Program-made: the position numbers and the translations under genes | The notes under the pieces: model-generated | What the model was told of the DNA's origin: nothing | What the model saw: only the letters and a program-made list of their open reading frames with translations | The model's database searches: none | Origin: Micromonospora sp. NBC_01699 | Lineage (GTDB): Bacteria > Actinomycetota > Actinomycetes > Mycobacteriales > Micromonosporaceae | Length of the DNA: 64,000 nucleotides | NCBI RefSeq assembly: GCF_036250065.1 | Contig: NZ_CP109199.1 | Coordinates: 7,812,083-7,876,082, forward strand | Direction of reading: 5' to 3' | Part shown: piece after piece, positions 3,860 to 49,863 of the stretch | Position numbering within the stretch: the stretch's first letter is position 1 | Layout of the letters: every line of letters starts with the position of its first letter

Positions 3860-4025
3860 CCTGGTCTCGCTGGAAGACTGACACATCCGGGCTGGTCGGG
3901 AAGCACTTCCCGACCAGCCCGATCAGTCTGTACCGCTCGGTCGACAGCCACGGAACGTTCGAAACTACCGCTAACCGCCCGGCCGACACGGGCAGAATTC
4001 AGGCCCGGCGAACACGTGCCGGGAC

Positions 4026-4788
4026 TCAGGCGGCGGCCGCGAAGACCCCGTCCCGGAGCAGCGGCACCACGTTGGAGACTCCGAACTCGACGGCGATCTC
4101 CACGTCCTCGCCGAAGCCCCGGTAGATCAACTCGCGGCCGGAGACGCAGCCCCGGATCGCCGCCGGCAGGTCGGGCACACCGCTCAGCGCCGCCAGTGCC
4201 ACCGCCGCCTCCACCGACAGTCCACCGGCAACGGTGACGAGCCCATCGAGGACGGCGGACGCTCCGAGGTGGTCCTCCACGCCGGGGCGGACCGTGCCGT
4301 CCGGCCAACGCTCACCGGCGGCGACCACCCCGATCGGCGCCTGCGCGGTGCCGTACCCCTCGTTGACCAGCCAGCGCGCGACGGCGGGTGCGTTGCGGAG
4401 ACAGGCCGCCACCACCGGCATTCCGGTGGCGCTGGCGGCGGCGCAGATCGCGGAACCGTTCGGTGACGGCAGTACGAGATCGGGCACGACCGGCGCGGTA
4501 CGCAGCGCCGCCGGCGACAACGACCACGGCTGTTCCGGGGTGACCGCACCTCGTCCGACCGCCGCGACGGCGCCGACCCGGCGGGCGTACTCGGCCGCCT
4601 GGGCGCCCCAGGGGAACGGGTGCACCCTGATTCCCCGGCTGACCGCCACCTCCACCGAGGTGGTGAAGGAGAGTACGTCGACCACGACCAGGGCGACACA
4701 GACCCGGCCGAGTTCGGCGGCACCGCCCAGCCCCCAGTCGAACCGTGCCCCGGATCCTGGTTGGGCGTAGACGGTGCCGACCAACGCC

Positions 4789-11865: not shown

Positions 11866-11926
11866 GTTGATCATGAAGTTAGCGACAAAATTCAGGCTCG
11901 AAATCGTCGCTAACTTCATGATCAAC
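11866..11926. repeat. Palindromic intergenic repeat element, copy 1 (18-bp terminal inverted repeats GTTGATCATGAAGTTAGC / GCTAACTTCATGATCAAC around an inner hairpin). A 60-bp C-rich tract is at 11800-11860.
   Basis: Read directly from the sequence. Identical termini occur at the four other loci listed as features. Confidence 0.85.
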
Positions 11927-15226: not shown

Positions 15227-15263
15227 CGCCGCGCTCCTTCCGGCCCGAGGGGTGGTCGTCCCG

Positions 15264-15416
15264 GGCAACCATGCCCGAGCAGTGATCTCCCGAGGCAACC
15301 GGGCCCGAGGAGTGATGGCCCCCAGGCAACCGGGCCCGAGGAGTCACGGCCCCAGGCAACCTGGCCCGAAAAGTGATGGCCCCCAGGCAACCAGGTCCGG
15401 GGGCAGTGATCAACCG
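15264..15416. repeat. Five tandem copies of a 30-31-bp unit (GCAACC-GGGCCCGAGGAGTGATGGCCCCCAG) in the divergent MFS/aldo-keto reductase promoter region
   Basis: Direct reading shows units beginning at 15264, 15295, 15326, 15356 and 15387. Confidence 0.8.
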
Positions 15417-16370: not shown

Positions 16371-16431
16371 GTTGATCATGAAGTTAACGCACTCCCGAGC
16401 GTCAAAATCGGTTGTTAACTTCATGATCAAC
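16371..16431. repeat. Palindromic intergenic repeat element, copy 2, between the convergent AKR and thiolase genes. It is followed by a G-tract (GGGTGGGGGGTGGGGGGTGGGGGCGGGGGTGGGGG) at 16438-16490.
   Basis: The termini are GTTGATCATGAAGTTAAC / GTTAACTTCATGATCAAC. Confidence 0.85.
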
Positions 16432-22659: not shown

Positions 22660-23238
22660 ATGTCCGTCGATCTCATTCAGGGTCAGCAACAGTTCTACGT
22701 ACGGCAGCGACTGCGCATGATGGTGAACCAGTACGAGGTTCGCGCGGTGGCACCCGACGGTTCCGAGGGCGACCTGCTCGCCTTCGCGCAGCAGAAGCGG
22801 ATGGCCTTCAAGGAACAGGTCACCTTCTACACCGACGACACCAAGCAGCAGCCGGTGCTCGGCTTCAAGGCACGGCAGAAGATCGACCTCGGCGCGACGT
22901 ACGACATCACCGACGCGGCCGGCAACGCCATCGGCCTGTTCCGCAAGGACTTCAAGGCGTCGCTGCTCCGCTCCACCTGGATCGTCGAGCAGCCCGGCCT
23001 GGGCGCCGCCCGTGGCCAGGAGCGCAGCCTGCCGGTGGCGCTGCTGCGCCGGTTCGTGGACTCGCTGAGCTGGTTGCCGTACCACTTCGACTTCCTGATC
23101 GGCGAGCAGCCGGCGTTCTCGGTGGTCAAGAAGTGGGGCCTGCGCGACAAGTACGTCATCGAGGTGCAGAACCCGCAGCTCGACCGCCGCCTGGTGATCG
23201 CCATGGCGATCGGCCTGGACGCCCTCCAAAGCCGCTGA
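22660..23238 (+). CDS. LURP-one-related (LOR/DUF567, tubby/scramblase-like) family protein
   Basis: 192 aa with MMVNQYEVRAVAPDG...FYTDDTKQQPVLGFKARQKIDLGATYDITDAAGNAIGLFRK. Confidence 0.65.
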   Translation: MSVDLIQGQQQFYVRQRLRMMVNQYEVRAVAPDGSEGDLLAFAQQKRMAFKEQVTFYTDDTKQQPVLGFKARQKIDLGATYDITDAAGNAIGLFRKDFKASLLRSTWIVEQPGLGAARGQERSLPVALLRRFVDSLSWLPYHFDFLIGEQPAFSVVKKWGLRDKYVIEVQNPQLDRRLVIAMAIGLDALQSR

Positions 23239-23295
23239 CCCACCCCCACCCCCACCCCCCTCCCTCCTCCCTCCCTCCTCCCCCACCCTCCTCCC

Positions 23296-23359
23296 CGTCG
23301 ATCTAGGGCAAATACGTGCTACTTGATCTTCAAGCGCCACCATTTGCCCTAGATCGACG
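23296..23359. repeat. Variant palindromic element (CGTCGATCTAGGGCAAAT ... ATTTGCCCTAGATCGACG with a nested CTTGA-TCT-TCAAG hairpin). It is flanked by a 70-bp C/CT-rich tract (23222-23295) and a G-tract (23360-23385).
   Basis: It has the same architecture as the GTTGATC family but a different sequence. It lies between the convergent LOR and anti-sigma genes. Confidence 0.75.
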
Positions 23360-23529
23360 GGGGTGGGGGGCTGGGGAGGGCAGTCTGGCCGACGGCGCCA
23401 GCGTGGACTGGGAACGCGGCTGAGGATCGCCTCATCAGCACCTGACCGCTGAGCCACAGGAGTGCGGCCGGACCCGTCAAGCGGGGTCCGGCCGCTTCCG
23501 CTTTCCCGGAGACCATGCCGCGAGCGCGG

Positions 23530-24303
23530 TCAGCCGCCGGCCGGACGGCGCGCGGGACCGTTGTCGACAAAGCGGAACGTGCTGCGCGGCGGAGCGTCGC
23601 CCAGCTCCTCCAGGATCAGACCGCGGGTCGCGGAGAACTGGAGGAACGCCGAGGAGTTGCTGATCGCGTACGCGTCCTTGCCGCTGGCGGTGATCGTGAA
23701 CCGCTGACCCGGATTGTCCGCGTCACAGGCCGCCGCCTCGACCGTCAGCGACTCCGACGTACCCGGGTTGAGCACCTGCCAGCAGGACGCCTCATCCGAG
23801 GCGGGGTGATTGTCGGGCTTGCCGTATGCCTTGATCAGGTACGTGTCACCGTCGAGCGGCGTCGGCACGAACAACTGACGTCCGCTGTCGTCGTCGACCT
23901 CGACCAGATCGCCGTCGAGCGACACCGCAGACTCGGACGCCTGTACGCGCACGATGGTGACCTCACGCGTACCCGAAAGCACGGGATCGGTCGCACGCCC
24001 GGGGATGGGCGGTGGTGGGGACAGCGACGGCGACACCGGTACGGAAACGGAGGGTCCGGCGGACGCGGGAGGGGCCGCGGGCGGACCCGTGTACGGCCGG
24101 TTGTCCGGCCGGGCCAGGGCGACGCCCGTGGTGAGCACGCCCACCAGCGCGACACCGAGCGTTGCCGTGGCGACGTGCCTCCGCTTACGCCGAGCGTCAC
24201 CGCGCTTGCGGATGTCGGCGGCGACGGTGGTGAGCCGGCCGGTACGGGCAGCGTGCGCGGCGATTGAACGCAGCCCGTCGTCGAGATGGTCGTCACGCAT
24301 CAC
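23530..24303 (-). CDS. Putative anti-sigma factor: a cytoplasmic N-terminus, one TM helix and a Pro-rich linker carrying a roughly 150-aa extracytoplasmic domain
   Basis: It overlaps the ECF sigma stop by 11 nt. The TM helix is ATLGVALVGVLTTGVALA. The C-terminal domain is paralogous to the lipoprotein at 25014..25708. Confidence 0.6.
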   Translation of the reverse strand: MMRDDHLDDGLRSIAAHAARTGRLTTVAADIRKRGDARRKRRHVATATLGVALVGVLTTGVALARPDNRPYTGPPAAPPASAGPSVSVPVSPSLSPPPPIPGRATDPVLSGTREVTIVRVQASESAVSLDGDLVEVDDDSGRQLFVPTPLDGDTYLIKAYGKPDNHPASDEASCWQVLNPGTSESLTVEAAACDADNPGQRFTITASGKDAYAISNSSAFLQFSATRGLILEELGDAPPRSTFRFVDNGPARRPAGG

Positions 24304-24805
24304 GGCCCCTCCCGCCCATGACGTACTGCTCGTTGCTGGTCAGGTGCTCGGCCAGGGCCCGGCGGCCCCGGGCGAGCCAGGTCTTGACCGTGTTGGCGGA
24401 GGTTCCGATCTCCGCCGCGATCTCGGCGACGCTGAGACCGACGAGATGGTGCAGGACGACGACCCTACGTTGATCGGCTGAGATCTGGCGCAGGGCCTGC
24501 ACCAGCGCCACGTGGTCGGGGTTGATCGGGTCGACATGGTCGTCGGTCACGTCCCGGCGATGAGCCCGGAGACGGTTCGCGGCCTTGCGCCACGCCGAGA
24601 CCGCTATCCGGTACGCGACCCGGCGCACCCACCCTTCGGGGCTTTCGCACTCACGCACCCGACTCCACCGATCCCACGCCCGCAGGTACGCCTCTGCCAC
24701 GGCATCCTCGGCCTCGGCGCGGTTGCCGACCATCGCGTACACCTGCCCCAGCACCCGCCGAGAGGATCCGGCGTAGAAGTCATCGAACTCCTCGGCGTTA
24801 CGCAT
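24293..24805 (-). CDS. ECF (sigma-70 family) RNA polymerase sigma factor
   Basis: Region 2 is DAVAEAYLRAWDRWSRV. Region 4 is LSVAEIAAEIGTSANTVKTWLARGRRAL. Confidence 0.85.
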   Translation of the reverse strand: MRNAEEFDDFYAGSSRRVLGQVYAMVGNRAEAEDAVAEAYLRAWDRWSRVRECESPEGWVRRVAYRIAVSAWRKAANRLRAHRRDVTDDHVDPINPDHVALVQALRQISADQRRVVVLHHLVGLSVAEIAAEIGTSANTVKTWLARGRRALAEHLTSNEQYVMGGRGRDA

Positions 24806-25013
24806 GTGCCATGTACTCCCACCCGACCGGACAACATCCGGCTGACCCAGTTACCCAGCGTACGGATTCGGTACACGCCTAGACCGTCATCGACTTCCGT
24901 CGAAGAGGGTAGGCGCCCGACACCGGCCGTCAGGCGTGGGGGTGGAGCGTTCGTGCGGTGTCAGGACGGCGACTCGATTCGCCGCCCCCTGACACCGGCG
25001 CGCTCGAACGTGG

Positions 25014-25708
25014 TCAGCCACCCGCCGGACGGCGCGCGGGGCCATTGTCGACAAAGCGGAACGTCGTACGCAGCGGCGCGTCGCCCAGTTCCTCCATGAT
25101 CAGGCCACGGGTGGAAGAGAACTGGAGGTACGCCGAGGAGTTGCTGATCGCGTACACCCCTTTGCCCTTTGCGGTGATGGTGAACCGCTGAGCCGGCTTG
25201 GCCTGGTCACAGACGGCCCCCTCGACCGTCAGTGGCGCCGACGTACCCGGGTTGAGCACCTGCCAGCAGGTCGGCTCGTCCGAGGCGGGGTGGTTGTTGG
25301 ACTTGCCGTACGCCTTGATCAGGTACGTGTCACCACCGAGCGGCGTCGGGACGAACAACTGCCGGCCACTGTCGTCGTCGGCCTCGCCCAACCGACCGTC
25401 GAGCGACACGCCGGACTCCGACGCCTGCACTCGCACGATCGTCACCTCACGCTTGCCCGACAGCACCGCGTCGGTCGAACCTCCCGGGACGGGCGGCGGC
25501 GCGACGGACGAATTCCCCGGGACGGGCGGCGGCGCGACGGACGGCGAGGCCGGTGCCGTGGCTGTGGCCGCCGGTGATGCCGTCACGGAAGCGGAGGCGG
25601 TGGGTCCGGCGGATGCGGTAGGGCCTGCGGGCGAACCGCTCTGGCACGCCACCAGCGCACCGGTGCACGCCAGCATCGTCGCGCCGGTCAGCCACTTCAC
25701 CTTGGACA
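25014..25708 (-). CDS. Lipoprotein carrying a paralogue of the anti-sigma factor extracytoplasmic domain
   Basis: Start ATG at 25706-25708 after GGAG. Signal and lipobox are MSKVKWLTGATMLACTGALVAC. The C-terminus (TIVRVQASESGVSLDG...RFVDNGPARRPAGG) is about 85% identical to the C-terminus of 23530..24303. The rest of track ORF 25014..26090 is spurious. Confidence 0.6.
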
Positions 25709-25865
25709 TGCCGTACTCCTCACACACACTGCCCGCAACTGTCCGCCGGGCGATCAACATGGACGCCACACCGGCCCTCATCGCGCCGACGCACCCCCAA
25801 CACGCCTGCCCCCACCCCCCGGTTTCAGAAACCCCAAAAAACTTCCCCCCACCCCGAAAACGCGC

Positions 25866-25925
25866 GTTGATCATGAAGTTAGCGCGCCCCGGGCGGCAAA
25901 AATCCGCGCTAACTTCATGATCAAC
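25866..25925. repeat. Palindromic intergenic repeat element, copy 3, immediately downstream of the giant ATPase gene stop. A C-rich tract is at 25795-25860.
   Basis: The termini are GTTGATCATGAAGTTAGCGCG / CGCGCTAACTTCATGATCAAC. Confidence 0.85.
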
Positions 25926-35914: not shown

Positions 35915-35949
35915 ACCCCAGATCCTACCCACCCACCCACCCCCCGCTC

Positions 35950-36010
35950 GTTGATCATGAAGTTAGCAACGCCTCCAGGCGCATTTTCCGTTGCCAACTT
36001 CATGATCAAC
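35950..36010. repeat. Palindromic intergenic repeat element, copy 4, between the divergent purD and AbiEi/DUF559 genes. It is flanked by a C-tract (35885-35945) and a roughly 90-bp G-tract (36011-36100).
   Basis: The termini are GTTGATCATGAAGTTAGCAACG / CGTTGCCAACTTCATGATCAAC. Confidence 0.85.
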
Positions 36011-36095
36011 GGGGCTGGGGTGGGGGTTATCCACAGGGGGGGTGGGGGTTGTGCACAGGGGGTGGTGGGAGGGGGTGGAAGGGGGGTGGGTCGGG

Positions 36096-37024
36096 GGATG
36101 GATGGGATGACGTTGGTTCGGCGGGTGGCGGCGGGGCAGGACGGGGTGGTGACTCGGGAGCAGGCGTTGGCCGCGGGGTTGACGGTGCGGGAGATCGATC
36201 GACTGTGTCGCAGCCGCGAGTGGCGGAGGCTGGCTCGGGCGGCGTACCTGGTGGATCTGACGCCGAGTCCGGTGGCGGCGCGGCGAGCCCGGATCCGGGC
36301 GGCAGTCGCCTCGTTCGGGGAGCTGGCGACGGCGGTGCTCGGGACCTCGGCCGAGTTGCACGGGTTGGCGGGACTGCGGCCGGATGCGCGGATCCACGTC
36401 TCCGTACCCGGCCCGGCCGCCCGACCGCTGCGATCGAAAGATCCGGCCGTGGTGGTGCACCAGCTCGTGATCCCGGCCGGGCAGATCGGCACGGTCGCCG
36501 GGATCCGAACCACCACCGCGACCCGTACGGCCGCCGACCTGGCACTCCGGGTGGACCGCTTCGCGGCCGTGTCGCTGCTGGACTCGGCTCTGCACCAGGG
36601 CTCGATCACCGAGCCGGACCTGCTGGTCGTACGCGCGCTGCTCGCCCGGCGCCGAGGTGCGGTGGCCGCCCGGCGTCACCTGGCCGAGGCGGACGGGCGG
36701 GCCGAGTCCCCACTGGAGACCCGGGTACGCCTGCGTTGCGTGGACGGTGGCGTACCACCGGACGCACTACAGCACCCGGTACGCGACGACGACGGCCACC
36801 TGCTGGCCGTGGGCGATCTCGCCTGGCTCCGCGAACGGATCATCGGCGAAGCCGACGGCGCGCTCGTACACGCCACCCCGGAAGCCCTCTACCGCGACCG
36901 CCGCCGCCAGAACCTGATCGCCAACGCCGGCTGGCGCGTACTCCGCTTCACCTGGGCCGACACCCTGAACCCCACCTACATCCCCACCACCATCCGCGCC
37001 GCCCAGACCCACCCGGCCCGTTGA
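36096..37024 (+). CDS. Protein with an AbiEi-type N-terminal domain and a DUF559 (Vsr-endonuclease-like) C-terminal domain
   Basis: MDGMTLVRRVAAGQDGVVTREQALAAGLTVREIDRLCRS... C-terminal ...NLIANAGWRVLRFTWADT. It lies exactly between repeat copies 4 and 5. Its TGA stop is inside copy 5. Confidence 0.65.
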
Positions 37025-37080
37025 CCATGAAGTTAGCGACGGTTCGGAGCACGTTTCCGGTCGCTAACTTCATGATCAAC
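37020..37080. repeat. Palindromic intergenic repeat element, copy 5 (GTTGACCATGAAGTTAGCGACGG...CCGGTCGCTAACTTCATGATCAAC). It is followed by three 21-bp tandem repeats GGCGGTCAGAGGAGGGRGTGG at 37087-37150.
   Basis: Direct reading. It overlaps the DUF559 gene stop codon. The downstream tandem repeats run into the purA 3' end. Confidence 0.85.
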
Positions 37081-37129
37081 GAACGAGGGCGGTCAGAGGA
37101 GGGGGTGGCGGTCAGAGGAGGGAGGGCGG

Positions 37130-38476
<1,347 letters not shown>

Positions 38477-49361: not shown

Positions 49362-49863
49362 CGTCCGGATTCCCTGTCGCGTCGCGCTGCCATAACTATT
49401 GACGGGTCGAGACCCGGGAAAGGCTGCAATTTCCCGGTGACGGTTTCATCAACTCGGCCGGTCGACCATCGAAAGGGCCGACCGTACCCGCCGCTCGTGC
49501 CCGGGCGCCGGCCGATAAGGGCGACGCGGGCAGCTGCTGACTGAGATCATTCCTGACGTTCCGCTCACCGTCACCACCACCCACCGACCCGCCAACGACC
49601 TGGCCAGCCGCCCCGTCCGGGGGTGAGGTGCCGGGGGTGGGGTGCCGACGAGTCCGAGCCGATCGATTCCTCGGCTGTAACCGAGGTCACCCGTACGGCT
49701 GGCCCGCCCACCGGGCGGGGGAGACGTCGGCGGGCGGGCACGCACCGTCGCCACCTAGACTGCGGGGGTACCCGTCGCCGTCGCGGAGGGTCGTCACCTG
49801 CTTGGAATGTCCGCCGATGCGCGGAAAGTCGCTACCCGACCGGGAAACCTCGGAGGTCACCCC

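Follow-up and report, generated by a model that had tools for sequence, protein, structure and literature searches.

A palindromic repeat between C-rich and G-rich tracts in Micromonospora and a candidate nuclease gene bracketed by its relatives

Why does a perfect palindrome stand directly behind a stop codon, between a C-rich tract without a single G and a tract made up mostly of G? The question is raised by element F, a 64-bp palindromic repeat at positions 23296–23359 of a 64-kb stretch of the genome of Micromonospora sp. NBC_01699. We call this whole stretch, which has a G+C content of about 70%, the window; its palindromes and tracts are given without a strand. By protein homology the window is Micromonospora DNA, and one of its proteins matches an NBC_01699 entry at 100% identity. 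The window contains five other palindromes (A to E), all of them GTTGATCATGAAGTTA elements of what we call family 1 or the GTTGATC family, which with F makes six in total. A first-pass annotation of the window had described F as an element with the architecture of the GTTGATC family but of unrelated sequence. It suggested either a general mechanism that generates poly-C/hairpin/poly-G modules or a second member of a broader superfamily. We find that F belongs, by its arms and by profile search, to a second family of interspersed repeats (family 2), and that in both families palindromes bracket a gene for an AbiEi-DUF559 protein. Our best explanation is a repeat system that resembles REPINs (repetitive extragenic palindromic (REP) doublets forming hairpins) but would work with a nuclease other than the REP-associated tyrosine transposase (RAYT), with a chromosomal “master” locus for each family. 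F itself would be a solo noncoding copy of an interspersed, Micromonosporaceae-specific family-2 repeat. We assign a probability of roughly 0.6 to this explanation as a whole, the role of F included.

F consists of two perfect 18-nt arms around an asymmetric 28-nt centre. The arms, CGTCGATCTAGGGCAAAT (23296–23313) and ATTTGCCCTAGATCGACG (23342–23359), are exact reverse complements of each other. The centre holds a nested hairpin, CTTGA-TCT-TCAAG (23322–23334), which the first-pass annotation had correctly recognized together with the palindrome around it. It is the counterpart of TTGATCTCCAATCA, the conserved centre of family 2. The F-type pattern of perfect arms has two matches in the window, compared to 0.04 expected from shuffles. 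The predicted DNA fold of the F core has a free energy of −30.4 kcal/mol (z = −11.4), and the predicted RNA fold of 23236–23390 has −80.4 kcal/mol (z = −7.5).

Directly upstream of F ends a LOR/YxjI-family gene (22660–23238, plus strand; PF04525 in the precomputed annotation). The 5′ flank tract of F (23239–23295) begins at the first base past the TGA of this gene. Its 57 nt comprise 45 C, 8 T, 4 A and no G, arranged in CCCACC and CCCT repeats (periods of 4, 6 and 7 in Tandem Repeats Finder). The 3′ flank tract (23360–23381) has 17 G in 22 nt, matches a G-quadruplex motif and is able to pair with the C tract to form a longer stem. Both tracts had been noticed before; the length of 70 bp then given for the C/CT tract takes in the end of the LOR gene.

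Further copies of F, which the first-pass annotation had proposed to look for, are numerous. We scanned one genome per prokaryotic species with the pattern CTAGGGCAAAT-N18–44-ATTTGCCCTAG and found at least 120 loci. Nearly all are from Micromonospora and, among the matches listed, most are from Micromonospora sp. NPDC049559. Other sources among the matches listed are M. vulcania, M. sonneratiae, strains NBC_01638 and NPDC050397, and one metagenome-assembled genome (MAG) each of Micromonosporaceae and Sporichthyaceae. A few matches in MAGs of low G+C content are unrelated palindromes. Collections of plasmids and phages contain no match to either family.

Family 2 has a consensus of 64 bp with the ends CGTCGATCTAGGGCAAATCC…GGATTTGCCCTAGATCGACG. 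The full consensus, CGTCGATCTAGGGCAAATCCtCGTTAGTTGATCTCCAATCACGACGATTTGCCCTAGATCGACG, derives from 100 oriented copies and has sharp boundaries. Conserved arms of 18–24 nt surround a 28-nt centre, which is asymmetric and occurs in both orientations among the 100 copies. A profile of these copies recovers F in an nhmmer search with an E value of 8.9e-17 (57 bits on the plus strand, 37.5 bits on the minus strand) and nothing else in the window. The arms of F are identical to those of more than 100 copies, its centre has the same length of 28 nt, and it carries the common motif TTGATCT.CAA. The centre has diverged: by manual count, 17 of its 28 positions match the family-2 consensus. Judged by arms and profile, F is a real but diverged member of family 2.

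How does family 2 relate to the family 1 elements that surround F in the window? Family 1 has at least 120 loci in a metagenome scan. These fall into subtypes of 55 and 66 nt, many with the loop motif CGGCGTGTCG. Members of both families are 61–64 bp long, have GTYGATC…GATCRAC as their outermost sequence and a nested central hairpin, sit just past stop codons, and have C on the left and G on the right. The two families each bracket their own AbiEi-DUF559 gene in the same layout, and an intermediate family starting with GTCGATCATGGAGTT bridges them. The architecture is thus shared, as the first-pass annotation had it, in size, nested hairpin, position behind the stop and flank polarity. The sequence is not unrelated, since the end heptamer is common to both families. 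The idea of a second member of a broader superfamily is borne out by the family-2 profile (E 9e-17), the common ends, the intermediate family and the parallel bracketing of genes. Together these similarities support the view that families 1 and 2 form one superfamily of hairpin-forming repeats.

Relatives carry three additional, related families. The family CATGATCATTGCGCTCTGAGCTGTT (L123 3505–3585) occupies the 3′ end of a thiolase gene, a site that carries family 1 in other species. The family GGTGATCAAGAGGTTTGCGTCAG, the fifth family (L249, about 2850–2910 and 3960–4030), stands on both sides of an AbiEi-DUF559 gene between purA and purD. The family GTCGATCATGGAGTTGTGG (L114 2784–2857 and L119 852–924) is found in NPDC049559. 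The arms of all three contain TGATCA or GATC. A small open reading frame (ORF) can be read through family-1 palindromes (MKLAT…VANFMIN); it has no ribosome-binding site, and we judged it to be a by-product of the palindrome instead of a gene.

The gene that the palindromes bracket is the candidate partner enzyme of family 1. In the window it lies at 36107–37024 on the plus strand, between purD and purA, and encodes 305 aa. Palindrome D (35950–36010) brackets it upstream and palindrome E (37020–37080) downstream; the stop codon of the gene falls in the left arm of E. Pfam finds AbiEi_4 and AbiEi_1 in the N-terminal two-thirds of the protein and DUF559 and MTES_1575 at the C terminus, with scores near the threshold (DUF559: 21.4 bits for a cut-off of 20.6). 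PADLOC models of AbiEi match the N-terminal part with an E value of 7e-21. An AlphaFold model of the protein (pLDDT 83) matches AbiEi (6y8q, E 1.7e-5) and Rv2827c (1zel), and its C-terminal domain weakly matches the catalytic domain of I-Bth0305I (3r3p, probability 0.63). In 47 orthologues the motifs SPLE (SPxE), D237 and E248-x-D250-G…H show no or almost no variation, and they are conserved in distant lineages. From profiles and the structural model, the protein is a predicted fusion of an AbiEi-type winged-helix DNA-binding region with a DUF559/MTES_1575 domain, a putative Vsr-like PD-(D/E)xK nuclease. The RAYT domain PF01797 (Y1/HUH) has no match in the protein. There is no adjacent gene for an AbiEii toxin; purD and purA flank the gene in the window and in L246–L249, deoD and an ABC/FtsX gene in L250.

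The layout of palindrome, boxes, gene and palindrome is found at 12 of 12 loci with the gene, the window included, and each locus uses a single palindrome family. These loci (the window, L246–L250, L140, L230, L193, L209, L214 and L161, where L246 is NBC_01796) occupy two different chromosomal positions. At the first the gene lies between purA and purD. We found it there in seven genomes or contigs, including NBC_01796, CP118615, Verrucosispora WMMD573, the JBFAHZ assembly and two metagenome contigs. A tblastn search with the window protein detects the gene in nine family-1 metagenome loci (0.70 Mb searched), and a palindrome stands on each side, about 1.05 kb apart, wherever the contig reaches.

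The same tblastn search finds no gene in 0.92 Mb of family-2 loci. A profile search of these loci has a single match, an 81-aa DUF559 remnant in NPDC049559 (L080, E 4.7e-16). The remnant (L080 1007–1222) is wedged between a family-2 palindrome and deoD. Most of the deoD-linked partner gene may have been lost at this site in NPDC049559, the genome with the largest number of family-2 copies. The sole database relative of the remnant led to a metagenome contig (L250). There, deoD is followed by a first palindrome of family 2, which is degenerate and stands between a long C tract and a G tract. Next come two GTTATCCACAG boxes and an AbiEi-DUF559 gene that is full-length but frameshifted. A canonical family-2 palindrome, a second G tract and an ABC/FtsX gene complete the order.

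Each lineage of the gene comes with its own kind of palindrome. The purA-purD lineage has 55-nt family-1 palindromes or, in L249, the fifth family on both sides. A lineage at 33–40% identity has the 66-nt variant of family 1. The deoD-linked lineage has family 2, in L250 and in L080, where the remnant abuts a family-2 copy. In the sequences at hand, gene lineage and palindrome type change together, and brackets that switch with the gene make it unlikely that the gene is a chance neighbour.

The boxes are a further constant of the layout. In the window, two motifs similar to DnaA boxes (TTATCCACA at 36027 and TTGTGCACA at 36049; 36027–36057, plus strand) lie in the G tract between D and the gene. 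At 11 of the 12 loci, the stretch from the upstream palindrome to the start codon contains a pair of boxes of the form (T/G)T(A/G)TCCACAG, ending in CACAG, with a spacing of 12–16 nt; the remaining locus, L161, has one TTATCCACA. All three gene lineages have the pair, which may serve as an autoregulatory operator or as a DnaA site.

Two observations concern rearrangement at the bracketed locus. Relative to purA and purD, the cassette of palindrome, gene and palindrome (35950–37080) has the opposite orientation in the window and NBC_01796 from that in five others (L247, L248, L249, L140 and L230). Furthermore, the loop of E (37041–37060) is the reverse complement of the orthologous loop in NBC_01796, with GGAAACGTGC common to both on opposite strands, a flip/flop of the centre. 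The flipped loop and the inverted cassette suggest that the palindromes take part in recombination.

Where do the copies sit, and what exactly is copied? For 174 copies of both families we had gene calls on each side. Convergent genes surround 86 of them (49%), tandem genes 74 (43%) and divergent genes 14 (8%), and none of the 174 lies inside an ORF. Between tandem genes the element adjoins the upstream stop codon, with a median gap of 17–23 nt; its orientation relative to transcription shows no significant bias (26 vs. 14). Direct repeats of 4–8 nt, as expected for a target-site duplication, flank none of 100 copies, and repeats of 2–3 nt flank one or two of 100. Copies with near-identical cores have flanks that match at 16.0 of 40 positions, compared to 15.5 for random pairs. 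Hence only the core of 61–64 bp is copied, and we ruled out that the flanks are part of the mobile unit. Solitary arms that bound a longer element do not occur in 1.6 Mb of loci; we found seven solitary arms, most of them at the ends of contigs or at gaps. The genes between closely spaced pairs of family-2 copies are ordinary metabolic ones, and there is no transposase among them.

Three palindromes of the window remain to be described. Palindrome A (11866–11926, starting with GTTGATCATGAAGTTAGCGAC) has a 70-nt C tract on its left. Palindrome B (16371–16431) is located where a thiolase gene has its 3′ end; a (G5T)n tract of 48 nt adjoins the palindrome on the right, and Micromonospora sp. NPDC049523 has an orthologous copy. 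Palindrome C (25866–25925) lies at the 3′ end of a gene for a 1684-aa DUF3686/AAA protein. In its M. pisi orthologue both arms have changed in a compensating manner (A/T to G/C), and in NBC_01796 the element is missing. Presence or absence of an element thus varies among close species at the sites of F, B and C.

If the flanks are not copied, why are they so similar in composition? We defined a strict tract as a 30-nt window with at least 70% C and at most 7% G, or the reverse. The window contains five such tracts, each directly beside one of the six palindromes, and relaxing the threshold does not alter this picture. The first-pass annotation had named, as the case against its reading, that no further copies exist and that such tracts are common everywhere in the genome. 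With at least 120 loci and all five tracts abutting palindromes, neither holds.

The skew extends to the families as a whole. In the 10 nt beside the core, the 100 copies of family 2 have 55% C and 22% G on the left and 52% G and 29% C on the right. The values for family 1 are 56% C and 20% G on the left, and 54% G and 19% C on the right. Immediately beside the core, CCCC is the most frequent sequence on the left and GGGG on the right, and the skew decays gradually over more than 50–80 nt. Extreme tracts have C on the left and G on the right in 11 and 12 of 100 copies, and the reverse polarity in 0 and 0. This arrangement is its own reverse complement, so that a G-rich tract stands 3′ of the palindrome on both strands. 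Half of the 16 G-quadruplex motifs in the window lie within 120 nt of the six palindromes.

Several general causes of the skew were rejected. A total of 326 other perfect hairpins in the same loci have no C/G skew, so that it is not common to hairpins in general. Where no element is present, gene ends are only mildly C-rich (41.5% C, 36.5% G), and the skew does not depend on whether a flank faces the 3′ or the 5′ end of a gene. Hence the C tract is not a general feature of 3′ untranslated regions. Nor are the flanks the arms of an older, specific hairpin, since true partner flanks pair no better than shuffled ones.

Orthologous loci show what happens to the tracts over time. Of all flank bases, 14.5% lie in tandem repeats, compared to 4.7% elsewhere. 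The G-rich right flank of E (37088–37148) consists of three tandem copies of a 19-nt unit, GGCGGTCAGAGGAGGGGGT, which includes the stop codon of purA; NBC_01796 has a single copy (L246 3960–3990). As read from this pair of sequences, the triplication at the end of purA directly illustrates the growth of a G tract next to a palindrome. The left flank of D has changed from GGGTGGGACTT in NBC_01796 to ACCCACCCCCC in the window. At this flank, CACCCACCCACCCCCC in the window (35929–35945) corresponds to CACCCGGGTGGGACTT in L246 (2838–2852), a G run exchanged for a C-rich counterpart at unchanged length. Our conclusion is that the tracts are linked to the elements and, as far as orthologous loci can tell, originate at least in part from local duplication after the insertion. 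The general poly-C/hairpin/poly-G mechanism of the first-pass annotation stands as a pattern and not as a demonstrated mechanism: the skew is specific to the elements, independent of gene orientation, not copied with the core, and changing at orthologous sites.

Two other stretches of the window deserve mention. At 49566–49644, in the spacer of divergent genes, a C-rich and a G-rich stretch lie 22 nt apart without a palindrome between them (CCCCGTC|CGGGGG). This might be an empty site, a footprint or chance. At 15242–15399, away from the palindromes, a 30-nt unit, GGCCCGAGGAGTGATGGCCCCAGGCAACCA, is repeated about five times in tandem.

The locus of F can be compared with that of five related genomes. 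They carry the LOR gene with an ordinary G+C-rich hairpin at the exact position of F; F itself is absent, and there is neither a C nor a G tract. The gene downstream of LOR differs between the window and these five relatives. The segment from F to palindrome C (23400–25860) contains genes for a 257-aa protein, an ECF (extracytoplasmic function) sigma factor (24293–24805) and a 228-aa paralogue of the 257-aa protein. It stands in place of a beta-lactamase gene that follows LOR in the five relatives (and of further genes too in NBC_01796 and NPDC004704). Both edges of this variable segment are marked by palindromes, F and C.

The F locus is also present in two independent assemblies from the Sequence Read Archive, whose contigs break within the element. 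These short-read contigs stop in the C tract or in the palindrome (L001 3637–3662 and the end of L002), one of them with an artificial poly-G tail. A C6 run is one C shorter in L002; the tract length may vary or be miscalled. C/hairpin/G modules break short-read assemblies.

No canonical intrinsic terminator (a G+C-rich hairpin followed by a U/T tract) is found in 22900–23800, where a G tract follows the hairpin instead. Rfam has no match at gathering thresholds in the whole window; below threshold there are only generic models of long-hairpin miRNAs (35 vs. 150 bits).

To explain these observations, we propose that each family has a master locus, an AbiEi-DUF559 gene between two palindromes of its own family. 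The protein would recognize the folded palindrome or its GTYGATC ends and would spread or maintain the copies. The C-rich 5′ and G-rich 3′ flanks would arise after insertion, through local tandem duplication and slippage beside the palindrome. A transcript that enters from either side would then contain a C-rich, G-poor stretch, a very stable hairpin and a G-rich partner, and could serve as a two-way terminator or protect 3′ ends. The polarity of the flanks may be retained because the module reads alike from either side. At the F locus, such a module would replace the ordinary terminator hairpin of the relatives. Two-way termination is the probable function of the copies.

A bolder version of this model can be imagined. 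AbiEi-DUF559 proteins would then be an unrecognized class of domesticated hairpin or cruciform nucleases, of which each lineage propagates and homogenizes its own palindromes of about 60 bp. Nicks at the GTYGATC ends would prime outward, slipping synthesis and thereby produce telomere-like G-rich 3′ tracts on both strands. This would explain the C-5′/G-3′ polarity, the tandem duplications, the flipped loops and the inverted cassette at once. We nevertheless regard it as unlikely.

Several points weigh against the proposed repeat system. Observations of a moving element, of a clean empty site or of cleavage are lacking, and the nuclease is linked to the repeats by association alone. There is no orthologous pair of a filled and an empty site with both flanks conserved, which leaves room for a target preference for junctions of C and G runs. 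The hairpin lacks a U tract on its 3′ side. In the inner stem of family 2 there are no compensating changes, and only few outer positions covary; the family-2 centre is therefore not kept paired by compensating changes. The link between family 2 and the gene consists of two loci, one a frameshifted metagenome contig (maybe an assembly error) and the other an 81-aa remnant. Lastly, the 0.92 Mb examined of NPDC049559 contain no intact partner gene, although this genome is the richest in family 2.

The proposed system has to compete with other explanations. If only the flanks are in question, target choice could account for them: the elements would insert at existing junctions of C and G runs, for example at the top of a terminator stem with a C arm and a G arm. 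The CCCC and GGGG most often found beside the core fit this scenario, and a target effect is a simple account of flanks that do not travel with the core. It does not sit well with a skew that fades without a sharp motif, with partner flanks that pair no better than the flanks of different copies, or with ordinary hairpins of these genomes, which lack a C-arm/G-arm asymmetry. Tracts also differ between orthologous occupied sites through tandem duplication and replacement, and the five relatives have no tract at the site of F. Target choice is thus conceivable but doubtful. Another possibility is that the repeats are ordinary miniature inverted-repeat transposable elements (MITEs), moved by a conventional transposase that lies outside our sample. 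The AbiEi-DUF559 gene would then be a favoured or tolerated neighbour, for instance a dispensable gene in a spacer that attracts insertions. Numerous short palindromes outside genes, present in one species and absent from the next, are what one expects of MITEs, and we sampled only a small part of any genome. Yet we found neither target duplications, nor solitary arms around a longer element, nor a transposase between close pairs. The gene is bracketed in 12 of 12 cases at two chromosomal positions, and both brackets switch family with the gene lineage. We consider this explanation improbable.

The relation between protein and palindromes could also be one of recognition without copying. In this case the palindromes would be chromosomal binding or “self” sites of an AbiEi-DUF559 defence or repair nuclease, that is, a regulon or a marking system. 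AbiEi proteins are DNA-binding autoregulators (PMC3985639), the N-terminal part of our protein matches the PADLOC models of AbiEi (E 7e-21), and a conserved pair of boxes lies upstream of the gene. These boxes (TCCACAG), however, do not resemble the palindromes, the elements are found at the 3′ ends of genes and not at promoters, and an adjacent AbiEii toxin gene is lacking. Copy number varies more than 100-fold between species, as it does in a replicating population. This makes binding sites alone a quite improbable explanation. Finally, F might belong to no repeat family at all and be a strong terminator that evolved locally, or a chance palindrome. It is the single copy of its type in the 64-kb window and occupies the site of a terminator hairpin in the relatives. 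An unrelated chance palindrome is refuted by the genome scan and the match to the family-2 profile, and arms, centre length and the TTGATCT.CAA motif shared with more than 100 copies leave the idea practically no chance.

If the REPIN-like system is real, it would provide a first functional lead for DUF559 and AbiEi-fusion proteins, which are very common in actinobacteria but uncharacterized. Polar tracts of C and G are a clear, measurable mark of some local DNA process beside a hairpin. Since the tracts place G-quadruplex motifs and stretches that resemble Rho utilization (rut) sites at gene ends, they bear on the annotation of terminators in antibiotic-producing Micromonospora.

How does the system compare with known ones? 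Integron attC sites have the form RYYYAAC … GTTRRRY, with AAC and GTT facing inward, and stand beside cassette arrays and an integrase. In our elements GTT and AAC are outermost (GTTGATC…GATCAAC) instead of facing inward, and the window contains neither a cassette array nor an integrase. In the full-text literature, with most subscription journals outside its coverage, we found nothing pertinent on the arms, on palindromic repeats in Micromonospora, on RAYTs or REPINs in actinobacteria, on MITEs of Streptomyces, or on DUF559 or AbiEi together with palindromes.

MITEs such as the Correia elements of Neisseria, and ERIC/IRU (enterobacterial repetitive intergenic consensus/intergenic repeat unit) sequences, are small intergenic palindromic repeats. 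In transcripts they can form stem-loops that affect termination or RNA stability. MITEs also have target-site duplications and a parent insertion sequence (IS) with a DDE transposase. In contrast, we found no target duplication among 100 copies, and no parent IS in 1.6 Mb of loci or in the plasmid and phage collections.

Actinobacteria use intrinsic terminators that consist of a hairpin only. Rho-dependent terminators depend on Rho and have an unstructured, C-rich and G-poor rut stretch, about 70–80 nt long, before the point of release. Our elements resemble both: a stable hairpin stands right past the stop codon without a U tract, and the G-free, C-rich tract before it is rut-like in composition (45 C and 0 G in 57 nt). 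The F module furthermore reads alike from both directions. Unlike in those terminators, the hairpin is a repeated, homologous sequence, and it is the repeat, not the orientation of the gene, that the C and G tracts follow.

The protein, too, has known relatives. AbiEi is the antitoxin of the AbiE type IV toxin–antitoxin and abortive-infection system and regulates its own expression (PMC3985639; PDB 6y8q). The N-terminal 190 or so residues of our protein match AbiEi (6y8q) and M. tuberculosis Rv2827c (PDB 1zel) in profiles and fold, and the pair of repeats upstream of the gene suggests, by analogy, autoregulation as in AbiEi. Unlike AbiE, the gene has no adjacent AbiEii nucleotidyltransferase, carries a C-terminal DUF559 domain and is bracketed by interspersed palindromes. 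This C-terminal domain resembles Vsr-type repair endonucleases and the Vsr-like homing endonuclease I-Bth0305I (PDB 3r3p) in its DUF559/MTES_1575 profiles and its acidic and histidine motifs, with a weak match in fold. Unlike those enzymes, the bracketed gene has no known mismatch or homing site, and it is syntenic rather than mobile across the genus.

The closest parallel is the REPIN-RAYT system, in which REP doublets form hairpins and are accompanied by a single-copy RAYT gene (Bertels & Rainey 2011, PMC3116915; PMC3337134). Like REPINs, our elements are short and extragenic, have two conserved inverted arms around a less conserved spacer, and form long hairpins. Their copy number, too, is in the tens to hundreds in some lineages but low in relatives, and they favour the 3′ ends of genes. 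As in REPIN-RAYT, one vertically inherited, syntenic gene is bracketed by copies of its own family, and gene lineages and repeat families change together. The differences are just as clear. The bracketed gene is an AbiEi-DUF559 fusion and not a Y1/HUH transposase (PF01797), and the hosts are high-G+C actinomycetes. GTAG at the 5′ end is a feature of enterobacterial and Pseudomonas REPs, whereas the ends here are (C)GTYGATC. We know of no REPIN counterpart to the polar C-5′/G-3′ tracts or to the pair of TCCACAG boxes. To our knowledge, REPIN-RAYT, described mostly from proteobacteria, is the main example so far of a long-lived, vertically inherited repeat population that a domesticated enzyme maintains. 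If actinomycetes have a parallel system with another nuclease fold, such repeat populations would have evolved more than once. What is new here is that AbiEi-DUF559 genes are bracketed by palindromes of their own family.

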